Shown piece by piece: positions 3,341 to 59,819 of a stretch of DNA of 64,000 nucleotides. Source of the DNA: a virus. Position 1 is the stretch's first letter; each line of letters begins with the position of its first letter. The DNA lies in IMG/VR virus record IMGVR_UViG_3300045988_167063. One strand, given 5' to 3'. Position numbers and translations under genes: made by a program. The notes beneath the pieces were generated by a model. That model was not told the origin of the DNA and made no database searches. It saw only the letters and a program-made list of their open reading frames with translations.

Positions 3341-3369
3341 TTGACAAATACTAAACTTTTTGATATAAT
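3341..3369 (+). promoter_or_regulatory. sigma70-type promoter
   Basis: TTGACA 3341-3346, 17-nt spacer, TATAAT 3364-3369 preceded by TG. Confidence 0.6.
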
Positions 3370-7276: not shown

Positions 7277-7277
7277 T

Positions 7278-10436: not shown

Positions 10437-10443
10437 GCAATAA
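9700..10443 (+). CDS. HNH homing endonuclease (intron-encoded)
   Basis: N-terminal Cys motif CDFCG...CSKH, HNH motif DHKDGNPMNNTRENLRICPQSKN, followed by an AP2-like FIGVT segment. Confidence 0.8.
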   Translation: MYKCDFCGRESFKKIRYGGYTVCSKHMHQMNKYGKVLDNIPRTNNDLSDFVIKDNLVYFNVYNQKNIKIGEFFIDKCDLDKVRWHKWRISSGHIVTGQPAKKQQKDVGHIILGTNPSVDTVIDHKDGNPMNNTRENLRICPQSKNVLNKRYISNNTSNFIGVTAVKDRNAYDPEIRINYKRCHLGYEKDKKHAVYKRYIAEELLFGEYVNEEEHNKKKNFTNDIPQNIKNELKEKTIQKLKAKNLWQ

Positions 10444-12912: not shown

Positions 12913-13144
12913 CCTTATCTAACTTTTTCTTATAGTTATCTGCCTTAATTGCATTGAGTGTGAAGCTATTATTTTTCCACCAAGTAGCAATTGAGGTGCA
13001 AATAAGAAAGACTAATGAAATAAATTGACTAATTTCATCGTCTGTAAATGGCAAAGTGTTCTTGCCTGTCATTTGAAGAATGATGTTAATAATTGCTACA
13101 AGTTGTAACACTGTTCTAATAATTGTTTCTTTTGATACTTTCAT
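12905..13144 (-). CDS. holin
   Basis: 79 aa, two hydrophobic helices, basic C-terminal tail, immediately upstream of the endolysin. Resembles LL-H/phi LC3-type holins. Confidence 0.65.
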   Translation of the reverse strand: MKVSKETIIRTVLQLVAIINIILQMTGKNTLPFTDDEISQFISLVFLICTSIATWWKNNSFTLNAIKADNYKKKLDKGE

Positions 13145-13555: not shown

Positions 13556-15055
13556 TTACCTCTTTAAATTCTCAATTTGTTGTTTTAATTCTTCAATTTC
13601 TTTTTGTTGTTTTTGAACCATTGCTACTGTTGGTGCAATAAGTTCATCATAACTCAAAGTCCATTTTAAATCTTTATCTTCAACATCAGGACTATAAGGT
13701 TTTTCAATTTCTTTTCCATTTTTGTCTTTTGCTAATTGAATTGCCTGATACATTGAAATATCGCCTATTGTATTCTTTGCATTTTCAGCAATATCTTGGG
13801 CATAAAATCCCAAATGTGTTCTATGCCCATTATCTTTCCATTTATATTCAACAGGCTTTAAATTCATATAAAACTCATCAAGTTTATTTTCATCTTTTAA
13901 ATAAGCAATATGAGTTTTTGCTTTTTTATCTGATACTTGAGATAAAGAACCATAATAAACAGTTCCTGTACAATATATGCTTTGCCAAGCGTGGTTTGTT
14001 GTTCCTAATTTTAAAACATTTGTAACATCGGGTTGAAATACTCCGCCTTCACCATCATCGTATAAAGTAAGTCCACTTGCTTTAGATGCAGACAATCTAA
14101 CAGTAGCATTGCTATATAACATTAACGAATTGGAATTAGTTGGGTCGTTATAAATAGATGAGTTTTTTGCAACACTTATATTATTGCACTCTATAATTCC
14201 TGTTGCAGTTAAATTATATGTATTTAAAGCATTTGTGGCATAAATATATGGGGATTTTATATCATTATTACAAGTAATATTATAACCATAAAAATTACCA
14301 TTATGGTCTATAACAATCGGACTTGTTCCATCATCTTTATTAATCGATACACTATGTACAAAAGCATTTCCAGCATAAGTTATTGCTACTTTTGAAGTAT
14401 TATTTTTAGCAATAGAAACAGCTACTTCATCTTCACTTTCAGAACTTGGCTTTAAAATCTTAACAGATTTCTGAACATTATTGATAAGACTATCATAACC
14501 AATATATAAGTCGTTTCGAGTTATAGCTCTTGCCCAACCAGTCCAATTTGTGCCTTCCCACGAATTAAACCACTCGGTAGGAATACCATATTTATCTCTG
14601 CCAAAAATTCTTACATAAGTAGGGTTACCCTTTCCTCGCCCAACATCTCTTATTCCCAAAAGACAATCTTCGGGCATATTAGCAGTTGTACCCCAAGAAA
14701 CTAACTGTGTTTTATTCAATTCAAAGTTTTCATCTGTTGTTGAAATAGATAATGCATCAGTTAAAATATCTAAATCTTTAGCATAAGCAGGAATAAAATC
14801 TTTAAGTCCATTAACTATCTTTTTATTAGCTAATGGATATGGACTTTCTTTGTCAAAATCTTGGTCTACTTGAATAGTACCACCAATTTGAGTTCGTTTA
14901 ATTGTATCGTCACTTTGTTTGACATCATTATATATTTTATCGTTTCCCTCTTGGTCGATAGTCCATAAAACTTGACCGTCTTTGAGAGGGGTGCTTCTTA
15001 TATTTTCGAGGGTATCTCTTTTAAAGAGAACATCAACCGTGTTCTTTTCGCCCAT
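13556..15055 (-). CDS. tail fiber/spike with C-terminal intramolecular chaperone (peptidase S74) domain
   Basis: C-terminus SDKKAKTHIAY...LKPVEYKWKD...HLGFYAQDI...LSYDELIAPTVAMVQKQQKEIEELK matches the S74 auto-cleaving chaperone pattern. Confidence 0.7.
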   Translation of the reverse strand: MGEKNTVDVLFKRDTLENIRSTPLKDGQVLWTIDQEGNDKIYNDVKQSDDTIKRTQIGGTIQVDQDFDKESPYPLANKKIVNGLKDFIPAYAKDLDILTDALSISTTDENFELNKTQLVSWGTTANMPEDCLLGIRDVGRGKGNPTYVRIFGRDKYGIPTEWFNSWEGTNWTGWARAITRNDLYIGYDSLINNVQKSVKILKPSSESEDEVAVSIAKNNTSKVAITYAGNAFVHSVSINKDDGTSPIVIDHNGNFYGYNITCNNDIKSPYIYATNALNTYNLTATGIIECNNISVAKNSSIYNDPTNSNSLMLYSNATVRLSASKASGLTLYDDGEGGVFQPDVTNVLKLGTTNHAWQSIYCTGTVYYGSLSQVSDKKAKTHIAYLKDENKLDEFYMNLKPVEYKWKDNGHRTHLGFYAQDIAENAKNTIGDISMYQAIQLAKDKNGKEIEKPYSPDVEDKDLKWTLSYDELIAPTVAMVQKQQKEIEELKQQIENLKR

Positions 15056-19969: not shown

Positions 19970-22900
19970 CTAATAAGATTTTTGTTTCATTTTTAAAGCA
20001 AAATCTTGTAAATAATTAACAAATTCTTCCCCATTATCCGTTTGAACATTCAAATTAGAAATATTTATATTTGTTGAATTTTCTTGTGAAGAATTATTTA
20101 TCGTGCCATTTCCTGCACCAAAGTTACTGCTACTAAAAGCACCAACATTATTTAAAATACCTGCTAAAGTATTTAAACTTTTAGCATTAACTACCCCACT
20201 ACCTTTTGGTAACATTGTAGTAATACCCTCATTTATTTTTGAGCCAACAACAAGTTCTGTATCTGGACTATCACCAACCAAAGCAATTTCGTCATTTTGA
20301 ACTCGTGCCACACCATCTGCGTGCTTTTTCTTTTTTTTCTTTTTAGATTTAGTCTTTGTAGAAGCAACAATCTTTTCAACTTTCTTATTTACAGATGCTT
20401 TTGAAACTTTTTTAGATGAACTTTTAGTCTTGTTTTCAAGTTCATCTAACTTTTTAGTCGCAGCCTCAAGCTTTTCAACTTGTTTTGTTGCACTTTCAAT
20501 TTTCTTTTGAATAGAAATGTATTTATTTTCAACATTACTTAATGTCGGAATAACATTATTTTTAAGTCCTTCTGTTCCAAAAATATCTGTTGTTCCAAGA
20601 TATTGTATTAAAAGTTGATTATTTTGAATATCTTTATATTTATTAGCAAGAGTATCAACTTGTTCCTTTTGCTTTTCAAGAATACTTATTTGATTATTAA
20701 GGCTATTAAGTATTCCGTCATTAGCCAATTTAATCTCATATTCTTTATCAAGACTATCTTGCTGTGCTTGTAAAATATCTCTTTGACTTTCAAGAGCAGA
20801 CACAGCATTTTCTTGTGCTTTTTCCCTATTATATTCATCTAAAGCTTGCTGTGCCTCATCTACTGCCCTTTCGTCAACACCATAAGTCCATTCGCCATCT
20901 TTAAATGTTTTGACTTTAGTCGCTTTAGCCTTTTGTAGTGCCTCAAGCTTTTCTTGTAATTCAATAGCATCGTTTACAGCATCATTAGCTTCTTCTTGCT
21001 TTTCAATTTCAGTATCAATAGCATCTATTTGAGATTGTAATAAGTCATTTTGTGCTTCTTTTTCAGCCTCAATCTGTTCTGTTCTTGCATCTTTTTCCTC
21101 TTCTAAAAGGTCAATTCTATCTTGAATTTTATCCGAAACAACACTGAAAACATCTTCAATATCCTCGGCTTGTTCTTTCCATTTATCAATGTTGTCCTCA
21201 AGTTTTTGCTTTTCCTTTTCAAGTTGTTTAGAAACCTTTTCAATAGATTTTGCAAGTTTCTTGTTTGCCTCGGTTAATGCCTTTTTAGCCTTTGTGGCTT
21301 TTGATGTAGCAGAAGAATTACTTTTAGTTGCTTTAGTTTGAGCAGCAGTGACCTTAAAGGATTTTTGCATTTGATTATGATAACCTTGATAAGCTTTCAT
21401 AATCTTTTCTTGACCCTCGGTCAATTTGTCTAAATTAACACCTTTACCACCTGCTGCCTCATTTGCAGTTGCAAGAGCAGTAGCAAAGCTTAGCACTCCT
21501 CCCGTAGCATTTGTAGCTTTATTACCCGTTGTTTCGGCAGTATCACCAAAAAGTCCAACTGCACTTTGAGCAAGATTAGACATATCGTTAGTGTTGCCCA
21601 TTGCATAATTATACATATCTTGAACAGCCGAATTGGCTAAAGTTTGAGTATAATTATTTGCAAGAGCTTGATTGAGATTGCCAAGCGTTGTTTTGTTAAT
21701 CTCAAATTGACCGCTATCGTTTATAAGATATTGTAAATATTCAGGTTGGAGGCTTAATAAATCTTGAAGTGTATCATAACTTACACCACCATATTTATTA
21801 TACTCTCTAAGAGCGTCTTTAGCAGTATCTTGAATATCTTTAAGTTCTTTAAGTTGAGTTGCTAAATCTTTTACAGCCTCGGCATTATCCGTAGTGCTAT
21901 CGGTGTTTTCGTCAGTTGAGTCGGTTGACTCGGATTGTGCATTTCTTTGTTTTAAATACTCATCGGTAGTCAAGCCTAAAGACTCTGCAAATTCTTTTGC
22001 TTGTTTTGCCGTTAATCCAAATTTCTTTAAAAGAGTTTTTTGACTTTCTGTCGCTTTATCCGCACTTTTAGCATTTTTGTTTTGAGTGCCATTTAATTTA
22101 TCTAAGGCTTTATTTGCTTCTTCGTTTGTTTGAGCATAAGCACCAAGATTTTCTTTGCCTATTTGATAAGCAATATTAGCATCTTCAAGAGTTTCTTTAT
22201 CTTGTTTTTGTTGTTCTGTGAGTTTTTTAATTTCTTCACTTGTTTGAGCTATGGCACTATCATAATTTTTATATCTGTTATTGCCTTGTTTTCTTAATTC
22301 GTCACTAACTTCTTGAAGTTTATCTTGATATTTTTGCAAGGCTTCTATTTGAGCTGTAATCCCCTTAGCAGATTTTACATCATCAAATTCAGACATTATA
22401 GAAATTTGTCCTTGACTCTGTTGTAATCGCTGAGATGTTAAATATCCTGTTAAAGAAGTGCCTTCTGTGGCTCTTTTAGTTGCACTTTTAACCTCACCAA
22501 CAGACTCTCTATATGTGGAAGCTGCCTCTTCAGCGTTTTGCTCTTTAAGAATTTCTAAATACTTTTCTCGTTCTTTAGTAGTGCCTTTAATAGCCTCTGT
22601 ATATTCACCAAAAATGTCGGTATTATTTTTGAGAATAGTATTTAATTCTTTTTCGGATAAATTTGTGTCGCTTAAATATTTTTCAAGTTCTTTATATTTA
22701 TCTGCACTTTCACTATAAGACTTTAGATTATCTCTTGCTTCTTTTGCGTTTTGTTCTTGTGTTTGCTTATATTTGTTATAAGCCATTACACCTATGCTTA
22801 TAGCAGATGTAACAAGACCGATAGCAGAAATAAGACCTTGTGTTGAAATTGCAAAACCCTCATTAGCAGTTGTTGCAGTATTTACACCTGTAACATATCC

Positions 22901-23542
22901 TGCAAAATGTTTTACAACTGTGGCTAAACCATTTGCCAAATCTTGTTTTATAGAATTAGCAAGATTTGCAATTCCACTTATAACACTATCAATTTTAAGG
23001 GCAATCACTTTAGCATTGATAGTAACTAAAATACCACCTATGGTAGTTAAAATAGCAACCAAATTGTTGCCATAGCCAATAAATTTGACTATACCTGTGC
23101 CAGCATCTACAAGATTCTTTAAAAATGTGTTAAGTCCACCCTCACCGAGTACAACCTCAGTAAACGCAGACTTTAATTGTGTAACCTTTGCTTGCAAGGA
23201 CTCCATATAAGCTTCGTTTTCTTTTGTTGCCGAGCCTTGCGAAGAAAGTGCTGTTATATTTGCCTCGATTGCCGTGTTGAAGTTACTCATAACGGCTGCG
23301 AATACCTTATATTGATGGTTAGAAGCAAGAGCATTACCAAGAGCAACTTGTTCCGTGTTGCTCATTGTTTCCCATTTAGGTGCTAAATCGGCAAGAATAT
23401 CATAGGTTGAACGAAGATTACCATTTCCGTCTTTAATTGCAACACCATATTCGGCTAATGCTTTTTCATTCTTTGCTATTCGGCTTGAAATGGTATTTAA
23501 ACCTCTTGCAACCTGTTGTGACTTGCCTTGGAATATTTCTGT
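19970..23542 (-). CDS. tail tape measure protein, exon 2
   Basis: The frame is open upstream of the ORF-track ATG back to TEIFQGKSQQVARGLNTISSRI (TMP core motif). Long coiled-coil body. Confidence 0.8.
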   Translation of the reverse strand, partial: TEIFQGKSQQVARGLNTISSRIAKNEKALAEYGVAIKDGNGNLRSTYDILADLAPKWETMSNTEQVALGNALASNHQYKVFAAVMSNFNTAIEANITALSSQGSATKENEAYMESLQAKVTQLKSAFTEVVLGEGGLNTFLKNLVDAGTGIVKFIGYGNNLVAILTTIGGILVTINAKVIALKIDSVISGIANLANSIKQDLANGLATVVKHFAGYVTGVNTATTANEGFAISTQGLISAIGLVTSAISIGVMAYNKYKQTQEQNAKEARDNLKSYSESADKYKELEKYLSDTNLSEKELNTILKNNTDIFGEYTEAIKGTTKEREKYLEILKEQNAEEAASTYRESVGEVKSATKRATEGTSLTGYLTSQRLQQSQGQISIMSEFDDVKSAKGITAQIEALQKYQDKLQEVSDELRKQGNNRYKNYDSAIAQTSEEIKKLTEQQKQDKETLEDANIAYQIGKENLGAYAQTNEEANKALDKLNGTQNKNAKSADKATESQKTLLKKFGLTAKQAKEFAESLGLTTDEYLKQRNAQSESTDSTDENTDSTTDNAEAVKDLATQLKELKDIQDTAKDALREYNKYGGVSYDTLQDLLSLQPEYLQYLINDSGQFEINKTTLGNLNQALANNYTQTLANSAVQDMYNYAMGNTNDMSNLAQSAVGLFGDTAETTGNKATNATGGVLSFATALATANEAAGGKGVNLDKLTEGQEKIMKAYQGYHNQMQKSFKVTAAQTKATKSNSSATSKATKAKKALTEANKKLAKSIEKVSKQLEKEKQKLEDNIDKWKEQAEDIEDVFSVVSDKIQDRIDLLEEEKDARTEQIEAEKEAQNDLLQSQIDAIDTEIEKQEEANDAVNDAIELQEKLEALQKAKATKVKTFKDGEWTYGVDERAVDEAQQALDEYNREKAQENAVSALESQRDILQAQQDSLDKEYEIKLANDGILNSLNNQISILEKQKEQVDTLANKYKDIQNNQLLIQYLGTTDIFGTEGLKNNVIPTLSNVENKYISIQKKIESATKQVEKLEAATKKLDELENKTKSSSKKVSKASVNKKVEKIVASTKTKSKKKKKKKHADGVARVQNDEIALVGDSPDTELVVGSKINEGITTMLPKGSGVVNAKSLNTLAGILNNVGAFSSSNFGAGNGTINNSSQENSTNINISNLNVQTDNGEEFVNYLQDFALKMKQKSY

Positions 23543-23544
23543 CT

Positions 23545-24663
23545 TTAAATTTTAATAAAATCGTCTAAAATCTTTTTAAATTTTCCATTTCTTATTATAT
23601 CATATTTTAATTTCAATAATGGAATATTATGTTTTTTACAATAATTTTCCTTTATTTTATCTCTCTCGATTTGATTTTGATAATTTACCAACGCTTTATC
23701 TTTAGCAATATTTCCAAAAAGAACAGGTTTATAATGTTGCTCACCCTGCACTTCAATTAAAATATTTTGTTTTGGCAAATAAAAATCAAAGGGATAAGGC
23801 TTAATATTTCCACAATCTTCAAATTTATATTCAGTGATAAAATCAATATTTTTAAATTTTAAATAATTTAACACAATTTTTTCCAATATTGATTTACTAC
23901 ACTCACTACAATAAATGCTTTTTCTTTGTTTTATACTATCCCAACTATGATAAGTAATATTTCCACACATACACTTTATTTTAAGTAGTTCATCACAATT
24001 TTTATATTCTGTACTTAATATTTCTATGCCTAAATTATTAAGCTTTATAAAATGTTTAATATTATCAATTGTATACGGATTAGATTTTATAAAAGGACTA
24101 AACATAGTATCTCTTCTCTGTTTTAAATTAGCATAACAAATCTTACCTTTATATCCATTTTTATCAATAACATCTATTAAAGTATCATTATATTCTATTT
24201 GACTTTTATCAAGAATAGTTAAACCGTGTTCGCTAAATACTTCTTCATATTGTTGTTCGTTCAATCTTTGAGCAATTCCTTTTCTACTTAAATAACATTT
24301 AGGACACAAATAATAATGTCTATTATAAATATTATTCCAATCACTTTTAAATAAATGCCCATTTAAATCTCTAAACAACATTTTAGTTGTCGAGTTTATA
24401 TATTTATGTGCTAAAATTTCAACAGGTATATTATTATTCTTAATATACTGCTTGATATTATTTAACGCAAATGGATTAACTGAATAAAAAGGAGAAAAAT
24501 CATTTCCAACATTAAATCTTGACCAACTTATAGAATATTTATATTCATTTTTGTCCTTAAATAAAACTTTTGTTTTATATCCCTGAAACTTAAAATCTAA
24601 TGGAATATATCCCTTGTTATATATTGAATTTATTATTGTTTCTTTAGTTACTTTCTTACTCAT
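23545..24663 (-). CDS. intron-encoded endonuclease, Vsr-like PD-(D/E)XK nuclease C-terminal domain
   Basis: Two repeated N-terminal modules (SPFYSVNPFALNNIKQYIKNNNI / SPFIKSNPYTIDNIKHFIKLNNL), Zn-ribbon CMCG...CSEC, nuclease motif FDFYLP...ILIEVQGEQH. Confidence 0.65.
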   Translation of the reverse strand: MSKKVTKETIINSIYNKGYIPLDFKFQGYKTKVLFKDKNEYKYSISWSRFNVGNDFSPFYSVNPFALNNIKQYIKNNNIPVEILAHKYINSTTKMLFRDLNGHLFKSDWNNIYNRHYYLCPKCYLSRKGIAQRLNEQQYEEVFSEHGLTILDKSQIEYNDTLIDVIDKNGYKGKICYANLKQRRDTMFSPFIKSNPYTIDNIKHFIKLNNLGIEILSTEYKNCDELLKIKCMCGNITYHSWDSIKQRKSIYCSECSKSILEKIVLNYLKFKNIDFITEYKFEDCGNIKPYPFDFYLPKQNILIEVQGEQHYKPVLFGNIAKDKALVNYQNQIERDKIKENYCKKHNIPLLKLKYDIIRNGKFKKILDDFIKI

Positions 24664-24803
24664 ATATCAATTTCTTTTTTAGACGATTTAATTTTCTTAT
24701 ATTTTCATATAAGAACCGACTATATTTTCATTTTAATAATAAAATGTAGGCTCTTTTGCTTTCGCTACTCTACTCACTTCGTCTACTTTTGTAGCTTATT
24801 CTA

Positions 24804-24832
24804 ATTATACCACAATTAGTTACATTTGTCAA
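24804..24832 (-). promoter_or_regulatory. sigma70-type promoter inside the intron, upstream of the endonuclease ORF
   Basis: Minus strand: TTGACA-aatgtaactaattgtgg-TATAAT (17-nt spacer, TG extended), same style as the early promoters. Confidence 0.4.
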
Positions 24833-25026
24833 GTATTTTTTACTTGATTGTTTTCGATAGTCTGTGAACCTTTCCTACTATTTCAAGTAAGACTTGGCTG
24901 CTGATTATCCATTATTACATATACATAATTTTCAAACATTCACACTTATAGTTTCCTATTATGTTGTAGTCTATGTATCTTTAGGACTTTCCAGCAATTT
25001 AGCCTATACAGGCAAGAAATTATTTC

Positions 25027-25719
25027 ACCTGCTGTTACTAATGCAATAGTTTGCTCAAAACTATTGCCATATGTACTTAAAGCAGCACCTGCCGCTGTTA
25101 AACCTTTACCAATATCACCTGATGAAACAGAAAAATTATTAGAAGTTTCATTGATAGCATCTATAATATGTTCGCTATTTTCTGCTTGAATATCAAAAGC
25201 TTTCATCTGTGAAATAAGAACAGCTGAAGCATCAGAAGCACTTAATTCTTCATCTGCAATATTTTGGTATAAGCTTGATATTTTTGCCAATTGAGCTGAT
25301 TGTTCATCTGAATAACCCGACTTTTTAAATTCTGTCGCAGCTTCAGTCATCTCAATACGAGTTCTTGCGACACTTTCACCCAACTCACCTAATTGTTGAG
25401 TGTATTCATTTAAGCTGTCACCACTTAAATCACTAACTTTTTTAAATTCGGTTAAAGCATCATCAAAATCTTTTACAATTTGAACTGCATTTGTAACACT
25501 TGCGGTAAATAATCCAATTACTGCTGTACTTATACCGAATTTAGCTACTTTCTTGGTAGTATCAATAAAATCACTACCAAGACTTTTTATTTTTGCACCT
25601 AACCCTGTAATTTGGTTAGTAGCGTCTTTAGTGTCAACGCTAATTTTCTTTTTACTTAATTGTTTTTGAACATCAGAAGTATCAACTCTGACCTTCGCAT
25701 TTATGAAAAAATCAGCCAA
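25027..25719 (-). CDS. tail tape measure protein, exon 1
   Basis: TTG start directly after the RuvC stop. Ends ...FEQTIALVTAG. The remaining 26 codons of the ORF-track frame are intron read-through. Confidence 0.8.
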
Positions 25720-31172: not shown

Positions 31173-31706
31173 TCAAGACAACTTTTGAATTAACTCTACT
31201 ATTGCAAATATAATACCACTTCCACCCACAATATAACCACCATACTTTGATAAAAATGTTTTAACTGAATTACTTTGAGTTTCAATAATATCAATTTTTG
31301 ATTTATTGTCAACTCTTTGAATTTCATCATCTACTTCGTCAAATTTATTTTCAACACTATTGATTTTACTTTCAACATTATTTACTTTATTTTCAACACT
31401 ATTAACTTTATCTGTCAACTGTGAAATAACTTCTGTTTGTTTCAAAAATGTTTCACCTTGATATTTAACTGTTTGTGCAATTTCAACCATAGAACTTTTA
31501 ACAGAGTCCAATGTGCTTACAAGTTTTTCATTTGCCTCAATAGATTGTTTAACTAAAAGGTCATTAGTATTAAGTTCAACCTCAAACTTATTCATTTTTT
31601 GATTAATTTCTTTAATATCATCATATTCAATATGGTCTATTCTTTTTTGAGTGTCTTTTATATCTTTAATAAGTCTATTAATTTCAACTGTTGTATTTTC
31701 TGCCAT
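31173..31706 (-). CDS. coiled-coil protein with C-terminal transmembrane anchor
   Basis: Repeats VNSVENKVNNVESKINSVENKF. C-terminal GGYIVGGSGIIFAIVELI hydrophobic helix. Confidence 0.55.
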   Translation of the reverse strand: MAENTTVEINRLIKDIKDTQKRIDHIEYDDIKEINQKMNKFEVELNTNDLLVKQSIEANEKLVSTLDSVKSSMVEIAQTVKYQGETFLKQTEVISQLTDKVNSVENKVNNVESKINSVENKFDEVDDEIQRVDNKSKIDIIETQSNSVKTFLSKYGGYIVGGSGIIFAIVELIQKLS

Positions 31707-31721
31707 TGAGATTATCCCCTT

Positions 31722-32402
31722 TTACAAAAAATCATCCTTATTTAAAAAGAGTGTTATATCACAAAGGATAATACTCCACAAAATGCAAGATGTGTATAAA
31801 TATAATTTTAAATATAGAAACAAAATGGCAAAAAATAAGGATATGACTATCCATTTAATCATACCCTTTCTATACCAAACAACATCATAAGGTTTATTAT
31901 ATTTGCTTGTATCTATATTTAATTTATTCCACAATAAAGTATAAGGTTTATTATTATACCACCTATCTTTAGGTTGTATATCGTTTATTTGCTCTTTAAA
32001 TGGTGCTTTTATATATAAGTCCTTAATTGATATTAACGCAATTAAAAAGACTAACCAAAGCCATTGTAGAGAATATTTTGACATATATCCTGTAACTATA
32101 ATTAACATATTAGAAATTACACTACACCTCAAATTTGAAGTGCAATGAAAACCGCCACAAAATTTTCTAATCTTATTAAAAACAATCGCGCTTACAATTA
32201 CAAAAGGCAAAATGTCAAACAAAATACCAAATACTATTATTGGAGTATATGTAGTTATTAGATAAATACAACAAGTTACATAATATGCTAAATCGTGATT
32301 GTCTGTTTTCTTAATAATAAAATCTTGTATTTTTTCTAAAATAAAAATCACCTCATTGTATTTATTATGTACTATGGTTGCTTTTTCAAGTAAAAGAACC
32401 AT
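31722..32402 (-). CDS. agrB: AgrB-like membrane cysteine endopeptidase
   Basis: IRKFCGGFHCTSNLRCSVIS aligns with S. aureus AgrB [20 protein letters not shown]. The catalytic His and Cys show the same 7-residue spacing. Multiple TM helices. Confidence 0.7.
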   Translation of the reverse strand: MVLLLEKATIVHNKYNEVIFILEKIQDFIIKKTDNHDLAYYVTCCIYLITTYTPIIVFGILFDILPFVIVSAIVFNKIRKFCGGFHCTSNLRCSVISNMLIIVTGYMSKYSLQWLWLVFLIALISIKDLYIKAPFKEQINDIQPKDRWYNNKPYTLLWNKLNIDTSKYNKPYDVVWYRKGMIKWIVISLFFAILFLYLKLYLYTSCILWSIILCDITLFLNKDDFL

Positions 32403-32425
32403 ATAAGAAAACTTTTAAGGTGTAA

Positions 32426-32902
32426 TTACTTACGAACTACGCCTGAACCCCACCATTGTTTCATCTTTAATCTCCTTAAAACGAAAATAAATATAAATTC
32501 AAATAAATCAATTACTATGAAATATTTGAACATTTTAAAGTTTGTAAGTTTAGATAAATCAATATTACAAACTCTCTCATAAAACAAAGAAAATGTTGCA
32601 TTGATTACTAAAGTATATAAATATTCTAAAGCAATAACAATTAACGAATAAAACACTTTCTTTATATCCTCATTTGTGTAATATCTTATCCTATAAATAT
32701 AGGCAAATATTACTATAATACCTATAATTTGCCTTGCAATAGGTGGTGCTAATGAACTCAAACAAAATACTGCACTAACAACTAAAGCATCGACAAATTT
32801 CAGTTTGATTTTTGTCAACTTGTTTACAAATAGATAGAATACTAAACTATCCCATAAACTAAATAACAAATAATCTGTTGCTAAGCCTTTAATAATTTCC
32901 AT
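32426..32902 (-). CDS. polytopic membrane protein
   Basis: About 5 hydrophobic segments, basic C-terminus. No kinase or other soluble domain. Confidence 0.55.
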   Translation of the reverse strand: MEIIKGLATDYLLFSLWDSLVFYLFVNKLTKIKLKFVDALVVSAVFCLSSLAPPIARQIIGIIVIFAYIYRIRYYTNEDIKKVFYSLIVIALEYLYTLVINATFSLFYERVCNIDLSKLTNFKMFKYFIVIDLFEFIFIFVLRRLKMKQWWGSGVVRK

Positions 32903-32969
32903 AATATAATCACCTTTCTTTGTTTTATTTCTTATGGTGACTACATTATATCACATAATATTTAAGATG

Positions 32970-33218
32970 TCAAGAGGAAAATGGAAAATTATCGTTAGTT
33001 TTTTCTACTACTTTTGTTGGTGGTACACAACAACAATCTAAATTTGGCAATATTTTTTCATACATTACCCTACTTCTAAATATATTATCAATTTGACTTA
33101 AACACTCTGCAACCTCTTTAAGTTCGCTAACATACATTTCATCATATTTTCTTGACTCTATTTCTGCTATTAGTCTATCAATTTGTGTATCAATCTTATC
33201 TCTTATACAATTTTCCAT
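32970..33218 (-). CDS. small helical protein with C-terminal CCC motif
   Basis: ATG preceded by GAAAGGTGGCTTTATAGAA. C-terminal ...LPNLDCCCVPPTKVVEKTNDNFPFSS. Confidence 0.5.
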   Translation of the reverse strand: MENCIRDKIDTQIDRLIAEIESRKYDEMYVSELKEVAECLSQIDNIFRSRVMYEKILPNLDCCCVPPTKVVEKTNDNFPFSS

Positions 33219-33242: not shown

Positions 33243-33602
33243 TCAAGCATTTGTAAAATTGTATCTCAATATTTTAATGATTTGTTTTAAATCATCTTGT
33301 TTTATCTCTCCAAGTAACCTTTCTATTCTCTTTTTGCTTATATCTCTTATACATTCGCATAAAACAGTATTTGTCTTTTTTGCAAAGAACAGATAATCGT
33401 CACGAGATAATTCGTAATGATTTATCATATTTTTTTTGGTTGTACTTGATGTAATTGGAATAACAATAACATTATTCCGATTTTTATTCAGCATTTCTGC
33501 CGAAACAACAATACAAGGTCTTATACCCTTTTCCTCATTGCCAACATTTTCGTCACCAAGATTAACCATATAAATTCCACCTTGTTTTATGCTTCTACTC
33601 AT
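33243..33602 (-). CDS. mazF: MazF/PemK-family endoribonuclease toxin
   Basis: KQGGIYMVNLGDENVGNEEKGIRPCIVVS...VIVIPITSS and VLCECIRDISKKRI align with B. subtilis EndoA [28 protein letters not shown]...AAITAQ / VILLEQIRTIDKQRL. Confidence 0.8.
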   Translation of the reverse strand: MSRSIKQGGIYMVNLGDENVGNEEKGIRPCIVVSAEMLNKNRNNVIVIPITSSTTKKNMINHYELSRDDYLFFAKKTNTVLCECIRDISKKRIERLLGEIKQDDLKQIIKILRYNFTNA

Positions 33603-33967
33603 ATCTTTTTAGGTTTACTTGTTACTACTTTCTTTTTTTGTTCAAAAGGTGTCAACGAAACATCATAAATATCATCAATTCCCTCTTGAACATATACATA
33701 TTCGGGTACACTCTTAAAAGTGTTTTTTACTTTAATTGTAGTGTCCTTATATTCAATATATAAATATCCCCTACGCTCAAACAAAACTCTATTCGAGCCT
33801 TTTGGAATTTCCTTTAAATCTTTCACTTTACAATTTTCCCACCTGTCATTGAGAATAAATTTATTTTGCAAATTACAGAATTTACTATAATTGCAAATAT
33901 TATTAGTTTTTTTACAAAATAAATATTCTTTGCCTTTAAAATTCCTATATTCTGTATAAAAACACAT
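33599..33967 (-). CDS. Cys-rich protein translationally coupled to the MazF-like gene (candidate antitoxin)
   Basis: ATGA overlap with the downstream toxin. Five N-terminal Cys residues (C2, C18, C25, C31, C46). No AbrB/RHH-like motif recognised. Confidence 0.5.
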   Translation of the reverse strand: MCFYTEYRNFKGKEYLFCKKTNNICNYSKFCNLQNKFILNDRWENCKVKDLKEIPKGSNRVLFERRGYLYIEYKDTTIKVKNTFKSVPEYVYVQEGIDDIYDVSLTPFEQKKKVVTSKPKKI

Positions 33968-35040: not shown

Positions 35041-35469
35041 TTAAGACAATTTTGTAACTGTTACATTAGCATTTGTTATTGTAACAGGTGTTCCGTCATT
35101 TTGAATAGTAAGATTAAGTGGAATATTATCAGTAACAGCACAGCAATTTGGACTTACTCTAACCATAAACTGTGATTGAGATAAGTTCATAATTACAGTA
35201 TCAGCAGTAGCAGACTGTGAAGCCTCAAAGCCTTCAATCTGTGTGCCATTACCATACAAATGGAATGTCGCTGTGCCACCTGCCGTTGCGACTGTACTTG
35301 CCGTTGCAGTGAAATCTACAAGATACCAACCTGCCCTATGCAAGCTAATAGCCGAACTTCCTGCCGAATGTCTTACTGTGCAAGAATTACTATTATAATT
35401 AGTTGTAAATACCACGGCACTGCCTGTATTTACTGTTTGTGTAGTATTAGAGAATGTAGTCAAAGCCAT
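35041..35469 (-). CDS. BclA C-terminal domain-like (C1q/TNF-like jelly roll) protein without collagen repeats
   Basis: ATG 35469 after GAAAGGA. Thr/Ala/Asn-rich beta pattern (AGWYLVDFTATAS...FHLYGNGTQIEG...LNLTIQNDG...ANVTVTKL) resembles the exosporium BclA CTD. Confidence 0.45.
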   Translation of the reverse strand: MALTTFSNTTQTVNTGSAVVFTTNYNSNSCTVRHSAGSSAISLHRAGWYLVDFTATASTVATAGGTATFHLYGNGTQIEGFEASQSATADTVIMNLSQSQFMVRVSPNCCAVTDNIPLNLTIQNDGTPVTITNANVTVTKLS

Positions 35470-35611
35470 TATATCAAGTCCTTTCAAGTATTTAGCATAT
35501 CGCACTTATACTGAAATAACTTTATCTAAATAGAAAAATGGCGAGTATTTCTACTCGCCATTATTATTTAATATTTGGTGCGAGTATGCACTCTGTCATA
35601 TTTTATTTAGA

Positions 35612-36298
35612 TTATGCTACTGTTCCGCAACCATTGCAATTACTGTAACCATATACATTTGTTGGGGTTGTATATGGTGAGCAAGTAATATAAGACGGAA
35701 TTGGGAACGGTCTTAAAAGGTTGACAAGGTTTGCAGACTGTGCTTGCTGTGAAAGTTGGAAGTTTGCAGTCTGTAATTCTCTATCTCTGTCCTCAAGTTT
35801 ATCACGAAGGTCTTGCATTGTATTAGCGTTAATCAATGCACGAGTAGCTTCGCCCTCTGCGTGAATTGCAGTAGTAATTTCGCAAGTGTTCTGTGCATTT
35901 TCATAACGAACTGCATCAATGTTGCGATTGGTTGTGCAACAGCAATCTTTCATTTGATAACCAAGTTCTGTAATGCCACCTGAAACACCATTAAAACCAT
36001 TAAGCATAGTTGTATTCATAGCATAAAAGCCATCACACAAACCATTAGAAATGCCATCAAGTTTATTAATAATTTGGTTAGTGTCAAATCCTCTCTGAAT
36101 ATCAGCCTGTGTTGCATAAGTGCCAACAGCACCATTACCATAGCCACCCCAAGCACTACCTCCACCAAAAAGAAGAATAAACACAATTATAAGAGCGAGA
36201 ATACCACCAGCACCACCACTAAGGAAACCGCCGTTGTCATCATTATTCTTTGTGAGAGCGAGAGCATCTCCAATACTTAAACCATTATCCATTGCCAT
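35612..36298 (-). CDS. Gly-rich membrane protein with Cys-rich ectodomain
   Basis: One TM helix (GGILALIIVFILLFGGG), CCC motif (MKDCCCTTNR), coiled coil, C-terminal CSPY...CNGCG. Confidence 0.5.
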   Translation of the reverse strand: MAMDNGLSIGDALALTKNNDDNGGFLSGGAGGILALIIVFILLFGGGSAWGGYGNGAVGTYATQADIQRGFDTNQIINKLDGISNGLCDGFYAMNTTMLNGFNGVSGGITELGYQMKDCCCTTNRNIDAVRYENAQNTCEITTAIHAEGEATRALINANTMQDLRDKLEDRDRELQTANFQLSQQAQSANLVNLLRPFPIPSYITCSPYTTPTNVYGYSNCNGCGTVA

Positions 36299-37399: not shown

Positions 37400-38356
37400 T
37401 TATGCACTAACATTTACTACACAAGCAGTAGTAAGAGTAGTCTTACCCTTTGCTACAATCTCAATAGTAGTAACTCCGTCAGTAGTCTTTGCTGTAACAG
37501 CACCATTATTGTCTACTGTTGCAGATGTACCTGAAGCAGTAAATGTAAGCTTAGTATTGTCAATCAACGAAGGCTGTGTGCCATCTGAATACATTTTATA
37601 AACTTTAATTGTCTGTGTTTCATTATGACCGAGTTCAATATTGCCACCTGCAACTACAAGAGCAGAAACATTAGCAAGCTCATCCTGTCCGTAAATGCAT
37701 TCTGTAATAACTGCATAATAGCCGTGGTCTGAACAGCCTACATTACCTGTAAATGTAGCAAGTGCTGTACCTGAAAGTGAAACAGAAGCAATGCCACTTG
37801 AGGTAAGCGACAAATCTTGTGAGCCTTCAAGTTGGAAATTAGGAATATCAACTACAATATCACCTATTCTTGAGGCATTACTTTCAATTGTTTCGCCTGT
37901 TGCACCACTCTTGAAAAGCGGAATTGTCATTACAGCGTGACAAACAGAAGGAACATAATCTGCATTTACAGTAAATCTACGAGCAGTAGCATCCGAGATT
38001 ACATATTTAATACAAATCGTTGAACCTACAACAAGTCCATCAACTGTTGCTTTATTTTCGCCTTTTGTAAAATCAAATTTCTTATAAGCATCATCAGCTT
38101 CTGTTGACAATTTATACCAACCAATAGTGCCACTTGTAGCAGTAAAATCTTTAGGTGTTTGAGCCACTTCAAGAGTATCTTTCTCTTTTACAGTAAATTG
38201 TTCAACAGTAAGAATATCTGCACCTGCGGTAATACCACCACCACAGCTAAGTGCAATATAATTCAAATCCCAAATTTGGTCTGTAAGTGTAAGACCAAAT
38301 GAGGAGTCGTGATAATACCTGCCGAGGAGAATATTACATTCAAAATAGTTTTTCGG
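37400..38356 (-). CDS. major tail (tube) protein with C-terminal Ig-like (Big_2-type) domain, exon 2
   Basis: Position, size and C-terminal TFTASGTSATVDNNGAVTAKTTDGVTTIEIVAKG Ig-like repeat. The 5' boundary is approximate: alternative acceptor at 38371. Confidence 0.55.
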   Translation of the reverse strand, partial: PKNYFECNILLGRYYHDSSFGLTLTDQIWDLNYIALSCGGGITAGADILTVEQFTVKEKDTLEVAQTPKDFTATSGTIGWYKLSTEADDAYKKFDFTKGENKATVDGLVVGSTICIKYVISDATARRFTVNADYVPSVCHAVMTIPLFKSGATGETIESNASRIGDIVVDIPNFQLEGSQDLSLTSSGIASVSLSGTALATFTGNVGCSDHGYYAVITECIYGQDELANVSALVVAGGNIELGHNETQTIKVYKMYSDGTQPSLIDNTKLTFTASGTSATVDNNGAVTAKTTDGVTTIEIVAKGKTTLTTACVVNVSA

Positions 38357-38739
38357 CATTAAACTATTTTTCTTTTATTATAAAACGCTACTTTTATAAT
38401 GCTATTTCGTTCACACTAATAGCCACATTCTTTCGATATGTGATAAGACTATTTCTTCACCTTTAAATTAAAGGGCAACCCATTTCTTCCTCCAAACACT
38501 TGAGGCTTTACTCTCTCCCGAGATAGTCGTTTAACCTTTTCCTATTCAGAACTTGGCGACCAAACTTCCATTGTTGCTTCTACTTAGGATTTAACCATAT
38601 AGAAATTTCTGTTGTTGTTTCTGCTTTCGCAACATTCATAAAATCATATTTCATATTTTATTGTAGTAACAGAACTTTAGGATTTACTGGTTTTAAGGTT
38701 GTGTCCTATGCTAATCACTTAACATACGGAGCATTAGTT
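38357..38739 (-). mobile_element. group I intron (ORF-less) in major tail protein gene
   Basis: Minus strand contains GGTTAAACGACTATCTCGG and GAAGAAATAGTC core elements. The 5' end GAGT|AACTAATGCTCC mirrors the terL intron GAGT|AAATAATAATGCTCC. Confidence 0.6.
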
Positions 38740-47324: not shown

Positions 47325-48956
47325 CTATTGATACTCACGACTGACCGCTCCACCCTCAGCTAAATCACTATTATCCTTTTGTGGTGCGCCAATATCGTAA
47401 GTATTTGTATTAGCATTAAACAAGGCAAATAAAGTATTTTGCATATCACTATGTTTAGCCTCTTTTACCATTGTTTCAAATTCACTGCCCTCATAACCTA
47501 AAAGAGTTCCCCACTTTCTTAAAGGCACTTGTATTCCTTTATCAGATAATTTTAAATGAGTATCAATATCTTCTTTCCTCTTAAAAGGCAGTGTACTACC
47601 ACTAACACGAAATCTAAATTTATATCTTTTAGTTTTCTTGTTTACAAAGAAATTTAAAAAGTTTTCAAATTGTGGATAAACTGCATTTGCAATTTCTTGA
47701 TAATCAGCGTTTGCAGCCAACTGTGCCTCTTCTTGTGATAATCTTTCATCTGTATAAATAAGTGAACTATTTGAAGCACCTAAACCAGCACTTGTTTTAA
47801 GTTGATTTTTATACATATTACTATTATTATCAGCAAATTGATAAAGCCTTGTTTCTTCAAGAGGTAAAGCAATTTGCTTAATATTTTTGTTAATGCCATT
47901 TCTTGCCAATCTCATAAGTTGTCCGACAACTTTAGGGTCAATAGTAAAGGCATTTTTATTATTGCCAACATTATCTTTATCTCTTGTTTTCATTTCTCCA
48001 AGAATAATTGCATTTGCAGAAATAATATCCTTATCTCTTTGTAATTTAGAAATTATATCATCATCAAATACTGACTTTAATAAGGAAGTTAAAGGTGGAA
48101 CAGTATTAAAATTAGAGGTATCATATTTAAACAACCAACTTCCTGCATTTACCTTTGTTCTTATATAATTTTCAGCATTAAAAGTATTTTGCCTACCCAA
48201 ATTTGACATATTGTCTACAATAAAGTTTTGCATTTGTTTGCTATTATCTTTACTACTTTGTCCTAATTTAGAATAGGCTTGGGCAAGTGTTTCGTCATAA
48301 TTAAGAACATTTACATTTGAACCATTAAAATAATTCAAATTAAAATCCCATAAAAAGCCATTTGCCCCACTACTTATAAAACGACCTGTGAGTTTACAAT
48401 ACTTTTGTGGCATCATTTGTAATGAAAAAGACTCTTTATTATCGTTCAAATCAATCGGAGTATCGTCAAAAGTCTTTTCGCTATCTCTAAGCCAACAAAA
48501 ATAAGTATCTGTTTTGAGCATATTTTTGACAACATTTCTAAATTCTTGTTTCGCTTTAAAATAATTAAAGAATTTATCTACTCTTTTGCAATCCTCTTTA
48601 TACTCTTCACTTTCAAACTCATCATCGTCTACTATATTAATCGGAACTCTATCTATATCAAAAGCCAATAAATTTGTTTTATATTCTATTGCCCTTTTAT
48701 AAATAGCATCCCAAGTTTCCATAAATTCGGAATAATCTTGTAATGTTTCAGCAGAATTTTTATAAGTAGCAATAGCTTGCCTTAAACTATCTCTGTCAGG
48801 TATTTGTTCATTATTATTTAAGTCAACTAATGTTTTATATTCGTTTATAGTATCATAAAAATAATTATTCTTATCTAATGGTGCTGAACTATAAAGTGCG
48901 TTCATAAAATCAATTACATTCCACACTTCGTCACGAGTTATAACTTCATCAGGCAA
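47325..48956 (-). CDS. portal protein
   Basis: 543 aa, directly downstream of terL and upstream of the protease. TTG start after GAAAGGAGG. Confidence 0.6.
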   Translation of the reverse strand: MPDEVITRDEVWNVIDFMNALYSSAPLDKNNYFYDTINEYKTLVDLNNNEQIPDRDSLRQAIATYKNSAETLQDYSEFMETWDAIYKRAIEYKTNLLAFDIDRVPINIVDDDEFESEEYKEDCKRVDKFFNYFKAKQEFRNVVKNMLKTDTYFCWLRDSEKTFDDTPIDLNDNKESFSLQMMPQKYCKLTGRFISSGANGFLWDFNLNYFNGSNVNVLNYDETLAQAYSKLGQSSKDNSKQMQNFIVDNMSNLGRQNTFNAENYIRTKVNAGSWLFKYDTSNFNTVPPLTSLLKSVFDDDIISKLQRDKDIISANAIILGEMKTRDKDNVGNNKNAFTIDPKVVGQLMRLARNGINKNIKQIALPLEETRLYQFADNNSNMYKNQLKTSAGLGASNSSLIYTDERLSQEEAQLAANADYQEIANAVYPQFENFLNFFVNKKTKRYKFRFRVSGSTLPFKRKEDIDTHLKLSDKGIQVPLRKWGTLLGYEGSEFETMVKEAKHSDMQNTLFALFNANTNTYDIGAPQKDNSDLAEGGAVSREYQ

Positions 48957-59790: not shown

Positions 59791-59819
59791 TTGACATTTA
59801 GATAAAACTATGGTATAAT
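59791..59819 (+). promoter_or_regulatory. sigma70-type promoter for the plus-strand early block
   Basis: TTGACA 59791-59796, 17-nt spacer, tgGTATAAT with TATAAT at 59814-59819. Confidence 0.6.

Follow-up and report, generated by a model that had tools for sequence, protein, structure and literature searches.

In the agrBDCA systems of staphylococci and clostridia, AgrB removes the charged C-terminal tail of AgrD, a precursor of roughly 40-55 aa that has an amphipathic leader, a Cys or Ser for (thio)lactone formation, and an acidic tail with a Pro motif. To our knowledge, AgrB enzymes are known solely as maturases of such AgrD-type autoinducing peptides, and phage agr genes have so far been treated as recent host captures. 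The arbitrium system works differently: AimP, a secreted pro-peptide of about 40 aa, undergoes processing outside the cell, and AimR detects it in the cytoplasm. In Enterococcus faecalis, FsrD is a 53-aa AgrD-type precursor that gives rise to a Ser-lactone, and Nakayama and colleagues are said to have found in 2006 that fsrD lies in frame with fsrB, yet has a Shine-Dalgarno site and a start codon from which it is translated separately. The Clostridioides difficile phage phiCDHM1 carries agrB, agrD, and agrC, which have been interpreted as a horizontally acquired host agr3 locus (PMC3901668).

Here we describe a locus of a different kind in the window, the whole 64-kb stretch of DNA that we analyzed, from a large uncultured gut phage (Table 1). 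It has the look of a phage peptide module that is as yet undescribed, as opposed to a quorum-sensing gene borrowed from bacteria, and in the literature we found no paper describing the cassette.

Table 1. Features of the AgrB-like locus and related genes in the window.
Feature	Position	Strand	Details
AgrB-family membrane cysteine peptidase (predicted)	31722-32402	minus	226 aa as called; Pfam PF04647
GTACATAA box	32365-32372	minus	after hairpin
Hairpin ATGGTTCTTTT-ACTTG-AAAAAGCAACCAT	32374-32402	minus	after mini-ORF; folding energy -9.7 kcal/mol
Mini-ORF MKQWWGSGVVRK, 12 codons	32426-32464	minus	ATG AAA CAA TGG TGG GGT TCA GGC GTA GTT CGT AAG TAA
Shine-Dalgarno site AAGGAGA of mini-ORF	32471-32477	minus	inside membrane reading frame, codons L-R-R
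5-helix polytopic membrane protein, ~146 aa without tail	32465-32902	minus	ORF, AF2 model
Predicted sigma-A/sigma-70 extended -10 promoter	32945-32973	minus	TTGACA-17 nt-TGnTATAAT; 12/12 plus TG motif
82-aa protein with CCC cluster, ending ...LDCCCVPPTKVVEKTNDNFPFSS	32970-33218	minus	neighbor, not a conserved part of the module
MazF/PemK-like toxin	33243-33602	minus	PemK_toxin, 78.4 bits
Cys-rich 122-aa protein	33599-33967	minus	upstream of MazF/PemK-like toxin, 4-nt overlap
Coiled-coil protein with C-terminal TM anchor, 177 aa, XhlA-like architecture	31173-31706	minus	weak XhlA match
Canonical holin	12905-13144		window phage
Canonical endolysin	12034-12912		window phage

The AgrB-like gene and its distribution

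An earlier note on this DNA had listed three ORFs (31722-32402, 32426-32902, and 32970-33218) and placed them in the late region. All three are present on the minus strand, and the portal, tape measure, tail fiber, and tail tube genes lie on that same strand. The first ORF had been read there as AgrB-like with a His/Cys pair, and profile searches do place it inside the AgrB family: the 226-aa product matches Pfam PF04647 at 78.4 bits (E 5.7e-22; gathering score 23), with residues 23-152 aligned to profile positions 2-142 of 185. All of its homologs carry PF04647 as well, the NCBIfam AgrB-like model gives a weak match, and the PHROG match is to phrog_10353 (function unknown). About six hydrophobic segments are visible when the protein sequence alone is read, a clade-specific loop of about 26-30 aa is inserted after the KAP motif, and a PDB sequence search returned no match. 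The product is a genuine but very divergent AgrB-type protein.

A profile comparison aligns two residues of the motif IRKFCGGFHCTSNLRC, His86 (codon 32145-32147, minus strand) and Cys93 (codon 32124-32126, minus strand), with the catalytic segment of AgrB from S. aureus, where the pair is H77/C84 within an R-x4-G-x-H-x6-C segment. All phage homologs that we aligned, down to ~27% identity, share R79, G83/G84, H86, and C93 without exception, and the catalytic His/Cys dyad is intact. The ATG assigned to the 226-aa ORF, which lies inside the hairpin listed in Table 1, is probably wrong because the first ~17-20 codons fall within this hairpin, are frameshifted in locus L009, and are interrupted by a stop in the clade of relatives at 70% identity. 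The true start is probably GTG 32351 or ATT 32342, and either would give a protein beginning (M)LEKIQD..., matching the relatives.

The usual Agr partners were not found. Among the ORFs scanned in the 64-kb window there is no AgrD-like small ORF, AgrC-type kinase, or LytTR/AgrA regulator, in keeping with the earlier note, which had seen none following the AgrB-like ORF, and we also found no AimR-like protein among them. Pfam searches of ~50 ORFs of the window gave no match to HATPase_c_5, HisKA, or LytTR, and the intergenic space of the window has no AgrD-like small ORF. We also compared the 82-aa protein, the mini-ORF peptides described below, and extended C-terminal fragments with the AgrD models (which we take to be TIGR04223 and PF05931), and found no match at E-values up to 1 or 10. 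The phage locus does not have the features of a canonical agrBDCA system, namely an adjacent AgrD together with AgrC and AgrA.

Uncultured SPbeta-like gut phages of ~100-125 kb share the block that contains this gene, and in them it is a conserved part of the late region. A word-index search of 5.8 billion proteins returned only 10 AgrB relatives, and every relative whose contig we inspected sits in an SPbeta-like phage block. Searching 185,579 species-representative genomes for the clade motifs found no relative, tblastn with three versions of the AgrB gave no match among 50,697 phage records in the deposited set, and megablast and tblastn of the region against deposited phages found nothing; none of the cultured phages and reference bacterial genomes that were searched has the block. 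Given that the relatives are few, occur in phage blocks wherever the contig was inspected, and are missing from the species-representative genomes and deposited phages, these phage AgrBs appear not to be recent host captures and to have been inherited for a long time within the virion-module region.

This history bears on the possibility that the orphan AgrB hijacks or interferes with host AgrD and AIP production, and so manipulates quorum sensing during infection. That no cognate AgrD, AgrC, or AgrA was found in the window would fit such a role, for which the agr genes of phiCDHM1 are a precedent (PMC3901668), and the use of the host's Agr components by phages has been suggested in reviews (PMC11945551). 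We nevertheless consider it improbable, given the deep divergence from bacterial AgrBs, the clade-specific loop insertion, and the vertical inheritance in the phage structural module down to ~27% identity, which is not a host-matched pattern.

The mini-ORF and the membrane-protein gene

The 158-aa polytopic membrane protein that the earlier note had listed beside the peptidase is present as an ORF (32426-32902, minus strand), but it holds two coding units: the membrane protein itself and a mini-ORF formed by its final codons, located between the membrane gene and agrB. This mini-ORF is too small for gene callers and was overlooked in that note. It lies upstream of every intact AgrB examined, encoding 22 distinct peptides, and is in frame with the membrane ORF in 15/26 tabulated loci and a separate ORF in 11/26, where it is found in ATGA or TAATG stop-start overlaps or in another frame. 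Whether fused or separate, the mini-ORF keeps its ATG, its stop, and its Shine-Dalgarno site. A GGAG/AGGA/GAGG core is found 6-10 nt before the ATG in 24/24 distinct loci, and the residues encoded by this stretch vary among loci (RR, GG, KE, GE). Both the Shine-Dalgarno site and the start codon of the mini-ORF are thus kept whatever the upstream frame does, which is an fsrD-like arrangement.

Gly6 of the mini-ORF is encoded by four synonymous codons, with synonymous variation at other positions too, and locus L018 spells a similar peptide, MKTWVGEIRR, with different nucleotides, so the peptide itself is under selection. Together, these comparisons of loci establish the mini-ORF as a predicted gene with a Shine-Dalgarno site and peptide-level selection. 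In the 3' half, rare codons are almost invariant, so some of the conservation concerns the nucleotides themselves and might stem from an element in the RNA or DNA.

Across the relatives, the micro-peptide is 10-24 residues long, with a variable head that is Trp-rich or hydrophobic (M-K/G-x-W-hydrophobic) and a conserved, charged tail, which is G(S)GVVRK in the clade of the window. One subfamily (L042, L043, and L044) has a long acidic tail, for example MGWMWLSEVEEEKEEVIEEQE. In the AF2 model of the membrane protein, the tail that corresponds to the mini-ORF is disordered (pLDDT <50). A comparison of charges between the peptide tail and the AgrB loops gave a weak hint of complementarity with the AgrB N-terminus, suggestive only, with too few independent lineages. 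The peptide lacks an amphipathic leader of the AgrD kind at its N-terminus. Neither Cys nor Ser is conserved in it (L005 has Ala in place of Ser7, and the GGVVRK group has no such residue), which makes an AIP-like thiolactone or lactone unlikely as its product. Since it consists of a hydrophobic core and a conserved charged tail, the peptide would follow AgrD-like logic without AgrD homology. The mini-ORF is the sole candidate peptide gene that we found adjacent to AgrB. It turned up in a search of relatives for small unannotated ORFs, a check that the earlier note had proposed, and it is a different candidate from the 82-aa protein named there.

In every intact locus inspected, the membrane gene is found a short way upstream of AgrB. 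Its product is modeled by AF2 with 5 helices (pLDDT 72); the model has no PDB fold match, and the protein has no match in Pfam, NCBIfam, PHROG, or PADLOC. A deep HMMER search recovered only 35 cluster representatives; apart from a single outlier of 727 aa, nearly all have 93-165 aa. The family is thus small, has been seen so far in phage contexts only, and has a profile too diverse to serve for a locus scan. Because nearly all relatives have 93-165 aa, this protein is not a truncated kinase sensor, and we rejected the idea that it is a decoy AgrC sensor domain since its relatives are essentially all stand-alone proteins of ~93-165 aa and there is no Pfam, NCBIfam, or PDB-fold match.

Between phages with 90-100% identical AgrB, the membrane gene and the N-terminal half of the peptide are hypervariable. 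Nucleotide identity drops from >0.9 to 0.5-0.7 over the membrane gene and the peptide head, and is back to 0.9-1.0 from the peptide tail through AgrB. The hypervariable stretch is limited to these two parts.

Perfect extended -10 sites are rare in the 64-kb window, which has only 6 of them (versus 0.22 expected in shuffles), 2 of these in the 46-kb late region. One of the 6 immediately precedes the membrane-protein gene. In 19/21 lineages, very divergent ones included, a site scoring at least 10/12 with 17-nt spacing is found 14-44 nt upstream of the membrane gene. This predicted promoter, host-type (sigma-A) and strong by its motif, would drive the membrane gene and the mini-ORF.

Hairpins and neighboring genes

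Relatives have hairpins at the same site between the mini-ORF and AgrB, with stem sequences that differ; those of L031, L043, and L018 run into a stretch of U and are terminator-like, and in L005, L042, and L044 tRNA genes are located between the mini-ORF and AgrB. Because a hairpin (terminator-like in some lineages) and tRNA genes intervene, the mini-ORF and agrB may not be co-expressed. A hairpin with GTACATA(A/G) is found at five late intergenic sites of the window (52364, 37348, 32371, 31149, and 19923), and the hairpin and box are generic late-operon punctuation, not specific to AgrB. We rejected the hairpin and GTACATAA as an AgrB-specific attenuator since the element recurs at four other late intergenic gaps. 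At the junction, Rfam in E-value mode gave chance-level matches only and no known RNA family, and RNAalifold on the junction alignment was uninformative, with the hairpins misaligned.

The mini-ORF and the membrane protein could form a unit that is independent of AgrB, for instance a protein for superinfection exclusion or immunity that carries a short tail or a regulatory upstream ORF, in which case AgrB would act on another substrate and the adjacency would be synteny. The hairpin or terminator and, in some relatives, the tRNA genes separate this unit from AgrB, the membrane unit has its own predicted promoter, and the rare-codon conservation suggests a nucleotide-level element. AgrB is missing from locus L021, which nevertheless keeps the membrane gene together with an extended small ORF, so the membrane-peptide pair can persist without AgrB. 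However, the membrane gene, the mini-ORF, and AgrB occur together in all the other lineages, more than 10 in number, and are jointly absent in the Enterocloster phage PMBT24, no other candidate peptide was found near AgrB, and the charged-tail architecture fits what AgrB enzymes remove. We consider independence from AgrB rather doubtful.

A role in lysis seems to us to have a low probability. The coiled-coil protein is located directly downstream of AgrB in all intact loci, has a weak holin-PHROG match in addition to the weak XhlA match, and in PMBT24, which lacks AgrB, its homolog adjoins a holin. These observations would suit a membrane protease in lysis or morphogenesis control that acts on this XhlA-like protein or on a holin-type partner. 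On the other hand, the coiled-coil protein is kept without AgrB in both PMBT24 and L021, the canonical holin and endolysin are 18 kb from the AgrB locus, and a hypervariable membrane partner is not expected of a lysis clock. The cassette as the lysis module of the phage was rejected for the same location of holin and endolysin (12034-13144). No defense system was assigned, PADLOC giving coiled-coil noise only.

On the upstream side, the toxin and the 122-aa protein form a conserved flank that follows the tail-tube gene in all relatives and in PMBT24. The PemK_toxin profile is matched by residues 6-113 of the toxin on positions 1-106 of 109, and MazF-like PHROGs match it too.

Between this flank and the membrane gene lies the 82-aa protein, which the earlier note had proposed as a non-canonical AgrB substrate. 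It is located two genes upstream of AgrB in the clade of the window, and its Cys cluster precedes a charged tail. Its 59-aa homolog in the 70%-identity clade has the N-terminal helical part and the C-terminal (F/Y)PFS(S/T) in common with it, but wholly lacks the CCC segment, making the Cys cluster a clade-specific insertion, and two extra genes are found between the homolog and AgrB. The more divergent lineages L018, L019, and L042-L044 have proteins of other sizes at this position, so judged by gene layout the 82-aa gene appears absent from these lineages, which keep AgrB, and from the majority of phages with AgrB. In the window, the strong predicted promoter separates the 82-aa gene from the membrane gene and AgrB. 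With the CCC segment not conserved, the gene not syntenic, and no match to the AgrD models, we rejected this protein as the substrate and think it very improbable indeed that it plays this part.

The proposed module and known systems

The reading that we prefer, tentatively, is that this is a phage module, seen so far in phage contexts only, and not a captured host agr gene, in which an allele-specific micro-peptide and its hypervariable membrane partner would be served by the AgrB-like peptidase. It would comprise a strong sigma-A promoter, the hypervariable 5-helix protein, a translationally coupled micro-peptide, and an AgrB-type peptidase just downstream. The micro-peptide, or in fused alleles the C-terminal tail of the membrane protein, would be the substrate, and the enzyme would recognize and remove the conserved charged tail, as AgrB does with AgrD. 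This would leave a short, allele-specific hydrophobic product that may act with the co-varying membrane protein. The outcome would be specific to the strain, for instance in signaling, superinfection exclusion, or recognition between phages. We infer the peptide's role as AgrB substrate, its cut site, any cyclization, and the function of the module.

A bolder version of this proposal, which we hold to be unlikely, is that the locus represents a new class of peptide system in SPbeta-like gut phages, in which a directly translated micro-peptide of 10-24 aa with a diversifying head is trimmed by the phage AgrB and read or handled by the co-diversifying 5-helix protein, giving phage "pherotypes". 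These could be used for kin discrimination, superinfection exclusion, or lysis/lysogeny communication, and such a system would have agr-like logic built from parts that are neither AgrD nor AgrC.

If the peptide is the substrate, then AgrB-type peptidases would accept a broader range of substrates than is known today, abundant gut phages would have a new route to strain-specific peptide functions, and there would be a further case of functional micro-ORFs hidden at the ends of annotated genes. Should the substrate be something else, the conserved mini-ORF, the promoter, and the hypervariable cassette would still offer concrete, testable targets.

Several known systems resemble parts of this locus. 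Like XhlA of PBSX and SPbeta, the 177-aa downstream protein combines a coiled coil with a C-terminal TM anchor, and its PMBT24 homolog is beside a holin, but the profile matches are weak and the canonical holin and endolysin of the window are 18 kb away. With the arbitrium system of the SPbeta group the locus shares a short phage peptide with a variable, phage-specific part, in SPbeta-like phages, whereas the partners here are an AgrB-type peptidase and a polytopic membrane protein. As in phiCDHM1, an AgrB homolog is carried by a phage without AgrA. The earlier note was right that the layout is unlike that of phiCDHM1, with its agrB, agrD, and agrC: here neither agrD nor agrC nor a close bacterial homolog was found, and the gene seems to have been kept since ancient times, in synteny, within an SPbeta-like virion-module region.

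As with fsrB and fsrD, the peptide ORF can be in frame with an upstream membrane-protein ORF and has its own Shine-Dalgarno site and start, although the upstream ORF in fsr is the AgrB homolog, while here it encodes a 5-helix protein that is unrelated to AgrB, with a much shorter peptide. Compared with agrBDCA, the phage peptide has 10-24 aa (AgrD has ~40-55 aa), no leader, and no conserved Cys or Ser, and its gene is upstream of agrB instead of downstream and is often fused to the membrane protein; the membrane partner has no kinase domain, no AgrA/LytTR was found, and the locus is in a late operon. In common with agrBDCA, the locus has a PF04647 enzyme, probably polytopic, with catalytic His and Cys 6-7 residues apart, an adjoining small ribosomal peptide gene with a hydrophobic core and a conserved charged tail, and, in an otherwise conserved locus, a hypervariable segment that spans the variable part of the peptide and its polytopic membrane partner.

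AgrB-family gene and its phage setting

The 226-aa ORF matches Pfam PF04647 at 78.4 bits (gathering score 23, E 5.7e-22) and the NCBIfam AgrB-like model weakly, and it is phrog_10353, of unknown function. In its IRKFCGGFHCTSNLRC segment, His86 and Cys93 align with the catalytic segment of S. aureus AgrB in a profile comparison, and R79, G83/G84, H86 and C93 are invariant in every phage AgrB homolog aligned, down to ~27% identity. By these comparisons the ORF is a genuine AgrB-family member, and the PF04647 score and the invariant H86 and C93 bear out an earlier note that had called it AgrB-like with a catalytic His/Cys pair. All three minus-strand ORFs in that note (226, 158 and 82 aa) lie exactly where it put them. 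It had also seen no AgrD-like short ORF, AgrC or AgrA following the gene, and among the ~50 window ORFs scanned and the intergenic small ORFs there is no AgrD-like ORF, AgrC-type kinase or LytTR regulator. The gene belongs to the AgrB family, and the locus is not a canonical agr system. That the peptidase hijacks a host AgrD is a reading we consider quite unlikely.

The true AgrB start is most likely GTG 32351 or ATT 32342, because the N-terminal extension of the 226-aa call is frameshifted in the related locus L009 and interrupted by stops in relatives whose AgrB is 70% identical (the 70% clade). The ATG of the 226-aa call lies inside the hairpin downstream of the mini-ORF described below. 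Natural deletions were noted in relatives: in L004 (6001-6903) an in-frame deletion takes out the mini-ORF and leaves ~105 N-terminal residues of the membrane protein fused to an AgrB that has lost its own N-terminus, and in L009 (5001-5408) the membrane protein has a 23-residue internal deletion.

The window is from a large phage of ~29% G+C, and its AgrB gene sits within a long minus-strand structural module, in agreement with its earlier placement in the late region. Judged by Pfam YomU_Tube, YomW, YomX and YomN in relatives and YopX in the window, the phage is SPbeta-like; the closest cultured phages, ~100-kb Enterocloster bolteae phages, share protein identity of only ~35%.

Features of the window, with strand
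Feature	Position	Strand	Remark
Portal	47325-48956	-	
Tail tube	37400-38359	-	
82-aa protein with CCC segment	32970-33218	-	ORF
Sigma-A extended -10 promoter, perfect TTGACA-17-TGnTATAAT	32973-32945	-	just upstream of membrane gene
Membrane protein	32426-32902	-	158 aa
Mini-ORF	32464-32426	-	ATG AAA CAA TGG TGG GGT TCA GGC GTA GTT CGT AAG TAA = MKQWWGSGVVRK
AgrB-family ORF	31722-32402	-	226 aa
Tape measure	19970-23365	-	
Tail fibre	13556-15055	-	
Holin	12905-13144	-	
Endolysin	12034-12912	-	
Perfect promoters, plus strand	681-709, 3341-3369, 59791-59819, 63946-63974	+	upstream of early genes
Perfect promoters, minus strand	24804-24832, 32945-32973	-	sole two in 46-kb late region

Elsewhere in the window, the tape-measure region (19970-25719, minus strand) is apparently interrupted: its first piece, a 257-aa ORF with PhageMin_Tail and TMP_2 matches (24946-25719, minus strand), comes before a gene for an HNH or intron-type endonuclease (23545-24663), which has a perfect promoter of its own, and the 1131-aa tape measure ORF comes after that. 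NrdD, the anaerobic ribonucleotide reductase, also apparently occupies two ORFs, one N-terminal and the other matching positions 264-471 of the NRDD profile, in a region with plus-strand ORFs at 7269-8465, 8757-9473, 9700-10443 and 10790-11545; the split and the nearby HNH endonuclease genes suggest an intron or homing-endonuclease interruption.

In ~100-125-kb metagenomic phage contigs, we noted a recurring block: the tail-tube gene, a Cys-rich small protein, a MazF/PemK toxin, one to three small genes, a ~150-aa 5-helix membrane protein, AgrB, and a coiled-coil protein with a C-terminal TM anchor. Among the homologs of the membrane protein, one is named 'Phage sp. ctGns7'. A search of 185,579 species-representative genomes with clade-specific AgrB motifs turned up no relative, tblastn with three AgrB versions gave no match in 50,697 deposited phage records, and our literature search found no paper on the block. 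Given this recurrence in phage contigs and the lack of relatives in reference genomes, the block is an old, vertically inherited phage feature. Conserved as a module and with a micro-peptide gene hidden in it, the locus represents a new variant, known so far from phage contexts only.

In the window, a full-length MazF/PemK toxin homolog has a Cys-rich ~120-aa protein directly upstream of it (33243-33967, minus strand; 4-nt overlap). All these phages, among them the cultured Enterocloster phage PMBT24 (L041 1890-3137), keep this pair directly behind their tail-tube gene, an odd location for a toxin-antitoxin-like pair. Between the tail-tube and toxin genes of the window lie a BclA_C/C1q-like 154-aa protein (35041-35505, minus strand) and a 228-aa protein that is rich in Gly and has a TM segment (35612-36298, minus strand).

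A micro-peptide gene at the end of the membrane gene

The final 12 codons of the 158-aa ORF form a mini-ORF with an AAGGAGA Shine-Dalgarno site 7 nt upstream of its ATG. Small unannotated ORFs in relatives had been put forward as worth a search, and a mini-ORF with a preceding Shine-Dalgarno site is present at every intact-AgrB locus (22 distinct peptides). It is in frame with the membrane ORF in 15/26 tabulated loci and separate in the other 11/26, where stop and start overlap as ATGA or TAATG or the membrane ORF ends in another frame. Where the membrane ORF runs through the Shine-Dalgarno site, its amino acids vary by locus (RR, GG, KE, GE) while the GGAG core is kept, so it is the ribosome-binding site that is constrained. 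In an AF2 model of the fused protein, the mini-ORF-encoded tail is disordered. We take this as evidence that the mini-ORF is a coding unit separate from the membrane ORF.

All four Gly codons are used for Gly6 across loci, and the L018 micro-peptide, MKTWVGEIRR, is spelled with different nucleotides, so selection acts on the peptide itself. A second subfamily is longer and acidic (MGWMWLSEVEEEKEEVIEEQE, MGVQWMSEIEEPEIEDEVVEEK, MGYWWFSSLEEIEEEDEVVEETEE), and fused C-termini of metagenomic homologs provide intermediates. In all of them a head that is Trp-rich or hydrophobic leads into a charged tail that is conserved; no micro-peptide matches AgrD models, and none of their Cys or Ser residues is conserved.

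Codons in the 3' half of the mini-ORF are almost invariably rare ones (GGC, CGT/CGC and AAG, against the GGT, AGA and AAA favoured in the genome), a sign of an additional constraint at the nucleotide level. At 32426-32448 and equivalent positions in the related loci (L001-L065), GGC GTA GTT CGT AAG TAA TTAC, the 3' half plus 4-8 nt after the stop, is nearly identical between phages with AgrBs only ~30% identical. This points to an RNA or DNA constraint or to a recombination boundary at the edge of a hypervariable cassette.

Promoters, hairpins and tRNA genes

The window has six perfect TTGACA-17-TGnTATAAT sites, against 0.22 expected by chance. Of the two in the late region, one precedes the HNH endonuclease gene inside the tail module, and the other precedes the membrane gene, where 19/21 lineages have a promoter scoring 10/12 or better (in most cases 11-12/12 with TG) at the equivalent position, even with unrelated flanks.

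A hairpin lies 3' of the mini-ORF, with a stem sequence that differs from clade to clade, a U-run after it in three lineages (L031, L043, L018) and a GTACATAA box following it. We rejected an AgrB attenuator: a strong hairpin (-10 to -17 kcal/mol) directly followed by GTACATA(A/G) occurs in five late-operon gaps (52364, 37348, 32371, 31149 and 19923, minus strand), four of them elsewhere, so the pair is general punctuation. Its role may be that of a terminator specific to the phage, a site of processing or a signal for late promoters. In several relatives, the box also stands ahead of the -35 element of the membrane gene's sigma-A promoter. Several relatives, including L005 (5809-5973), L042 (4700-4856) and L044 (4589-4756), have two tRNA genes (Gln+Leu, Ser+Met or Ser+Ser) between hairpin and AgrB, and in L021 (4211-4384) tRNA genes occupy the place of the missing AgrB.

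Candidate substrates and comparison with agr systems

While the AgrB family assignment in the earlier note was confirmed, its proposal of the 82-aa protein as substrate did not stand, and we consider it extremely improbable. The homolog in the 70% clade is 59 aa and shares the N-terminal helical region and terminal YPFST without the CCC segment, with two additional genes between it and AgrB; by gene layout, L018, L019 and L042-L044, which keep the AgrB block, have other small proteins (102-119 aa) in its position. In the window, a strong promoter separates the 82-aa gene from the next gene. It is not a conserved AgrB partner.

The best-supported reading, which we hold tentatively, makes the micro-peptide (in fused alleles, the corresponding tail) the substrate of the AgrB-like peptidase: the enzyme would take off the conserved charged tail, and the allele-specific head would serve some strain-specific function together with the membrane protein that varies alongside it. 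Against this, no Cys or Ser is available for a (thio)lactone, mini-ORF and AgrB stand in the opposite order to agrBD and are separated by a terminator-like hairpin and in some relatives by tRNA genes, and the rare-codon 3' half is constrained at the nucleotide level. The membrane-peptide pair is also retained in L021 without AgrB. A membrane-peptide unit independent of AgrB is a somewhat unlikely alternative. A lysis-related protease acting on the XhlA-like neighbour is suggested because that neighbour adjoins a holin in PMBT24, and we regard it as improbable.

Hypervariability shows in eight phages with AgrBs 90-100% identical. Among them, nucleotide identity drops from >0.9 to 0.5-0.7 over the membrane gene and the first ~5 mini-ORF codons, and returns to 0.9-1.0 from the mini-ORF 3' half through AgrB; the micro-peptide heads differ correspondingly (GWF, GWM, LWF, IWL, LWM, LGI, IWF and GWL). 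In the window's own clade, too, the C-terminal half of the membrane protein is allelic, and the heads are QWW, QWV and QWF. A hypervariable region is an established feature of staphylococcal agr specificity groups, and the phage locus resembles it in that the signal part and the polytopic partner vary while the recognition tail and the enzyme are conserved. As had been noted earlier, the arrangement is unlike that of the Clostridioides difficile phage phiCDHM1, whose agrB, agrD and agrC are read as a host-derived agr3 locus (PMC3901668), whereas the AgrB block of the window is old and vertically inherited in phages.
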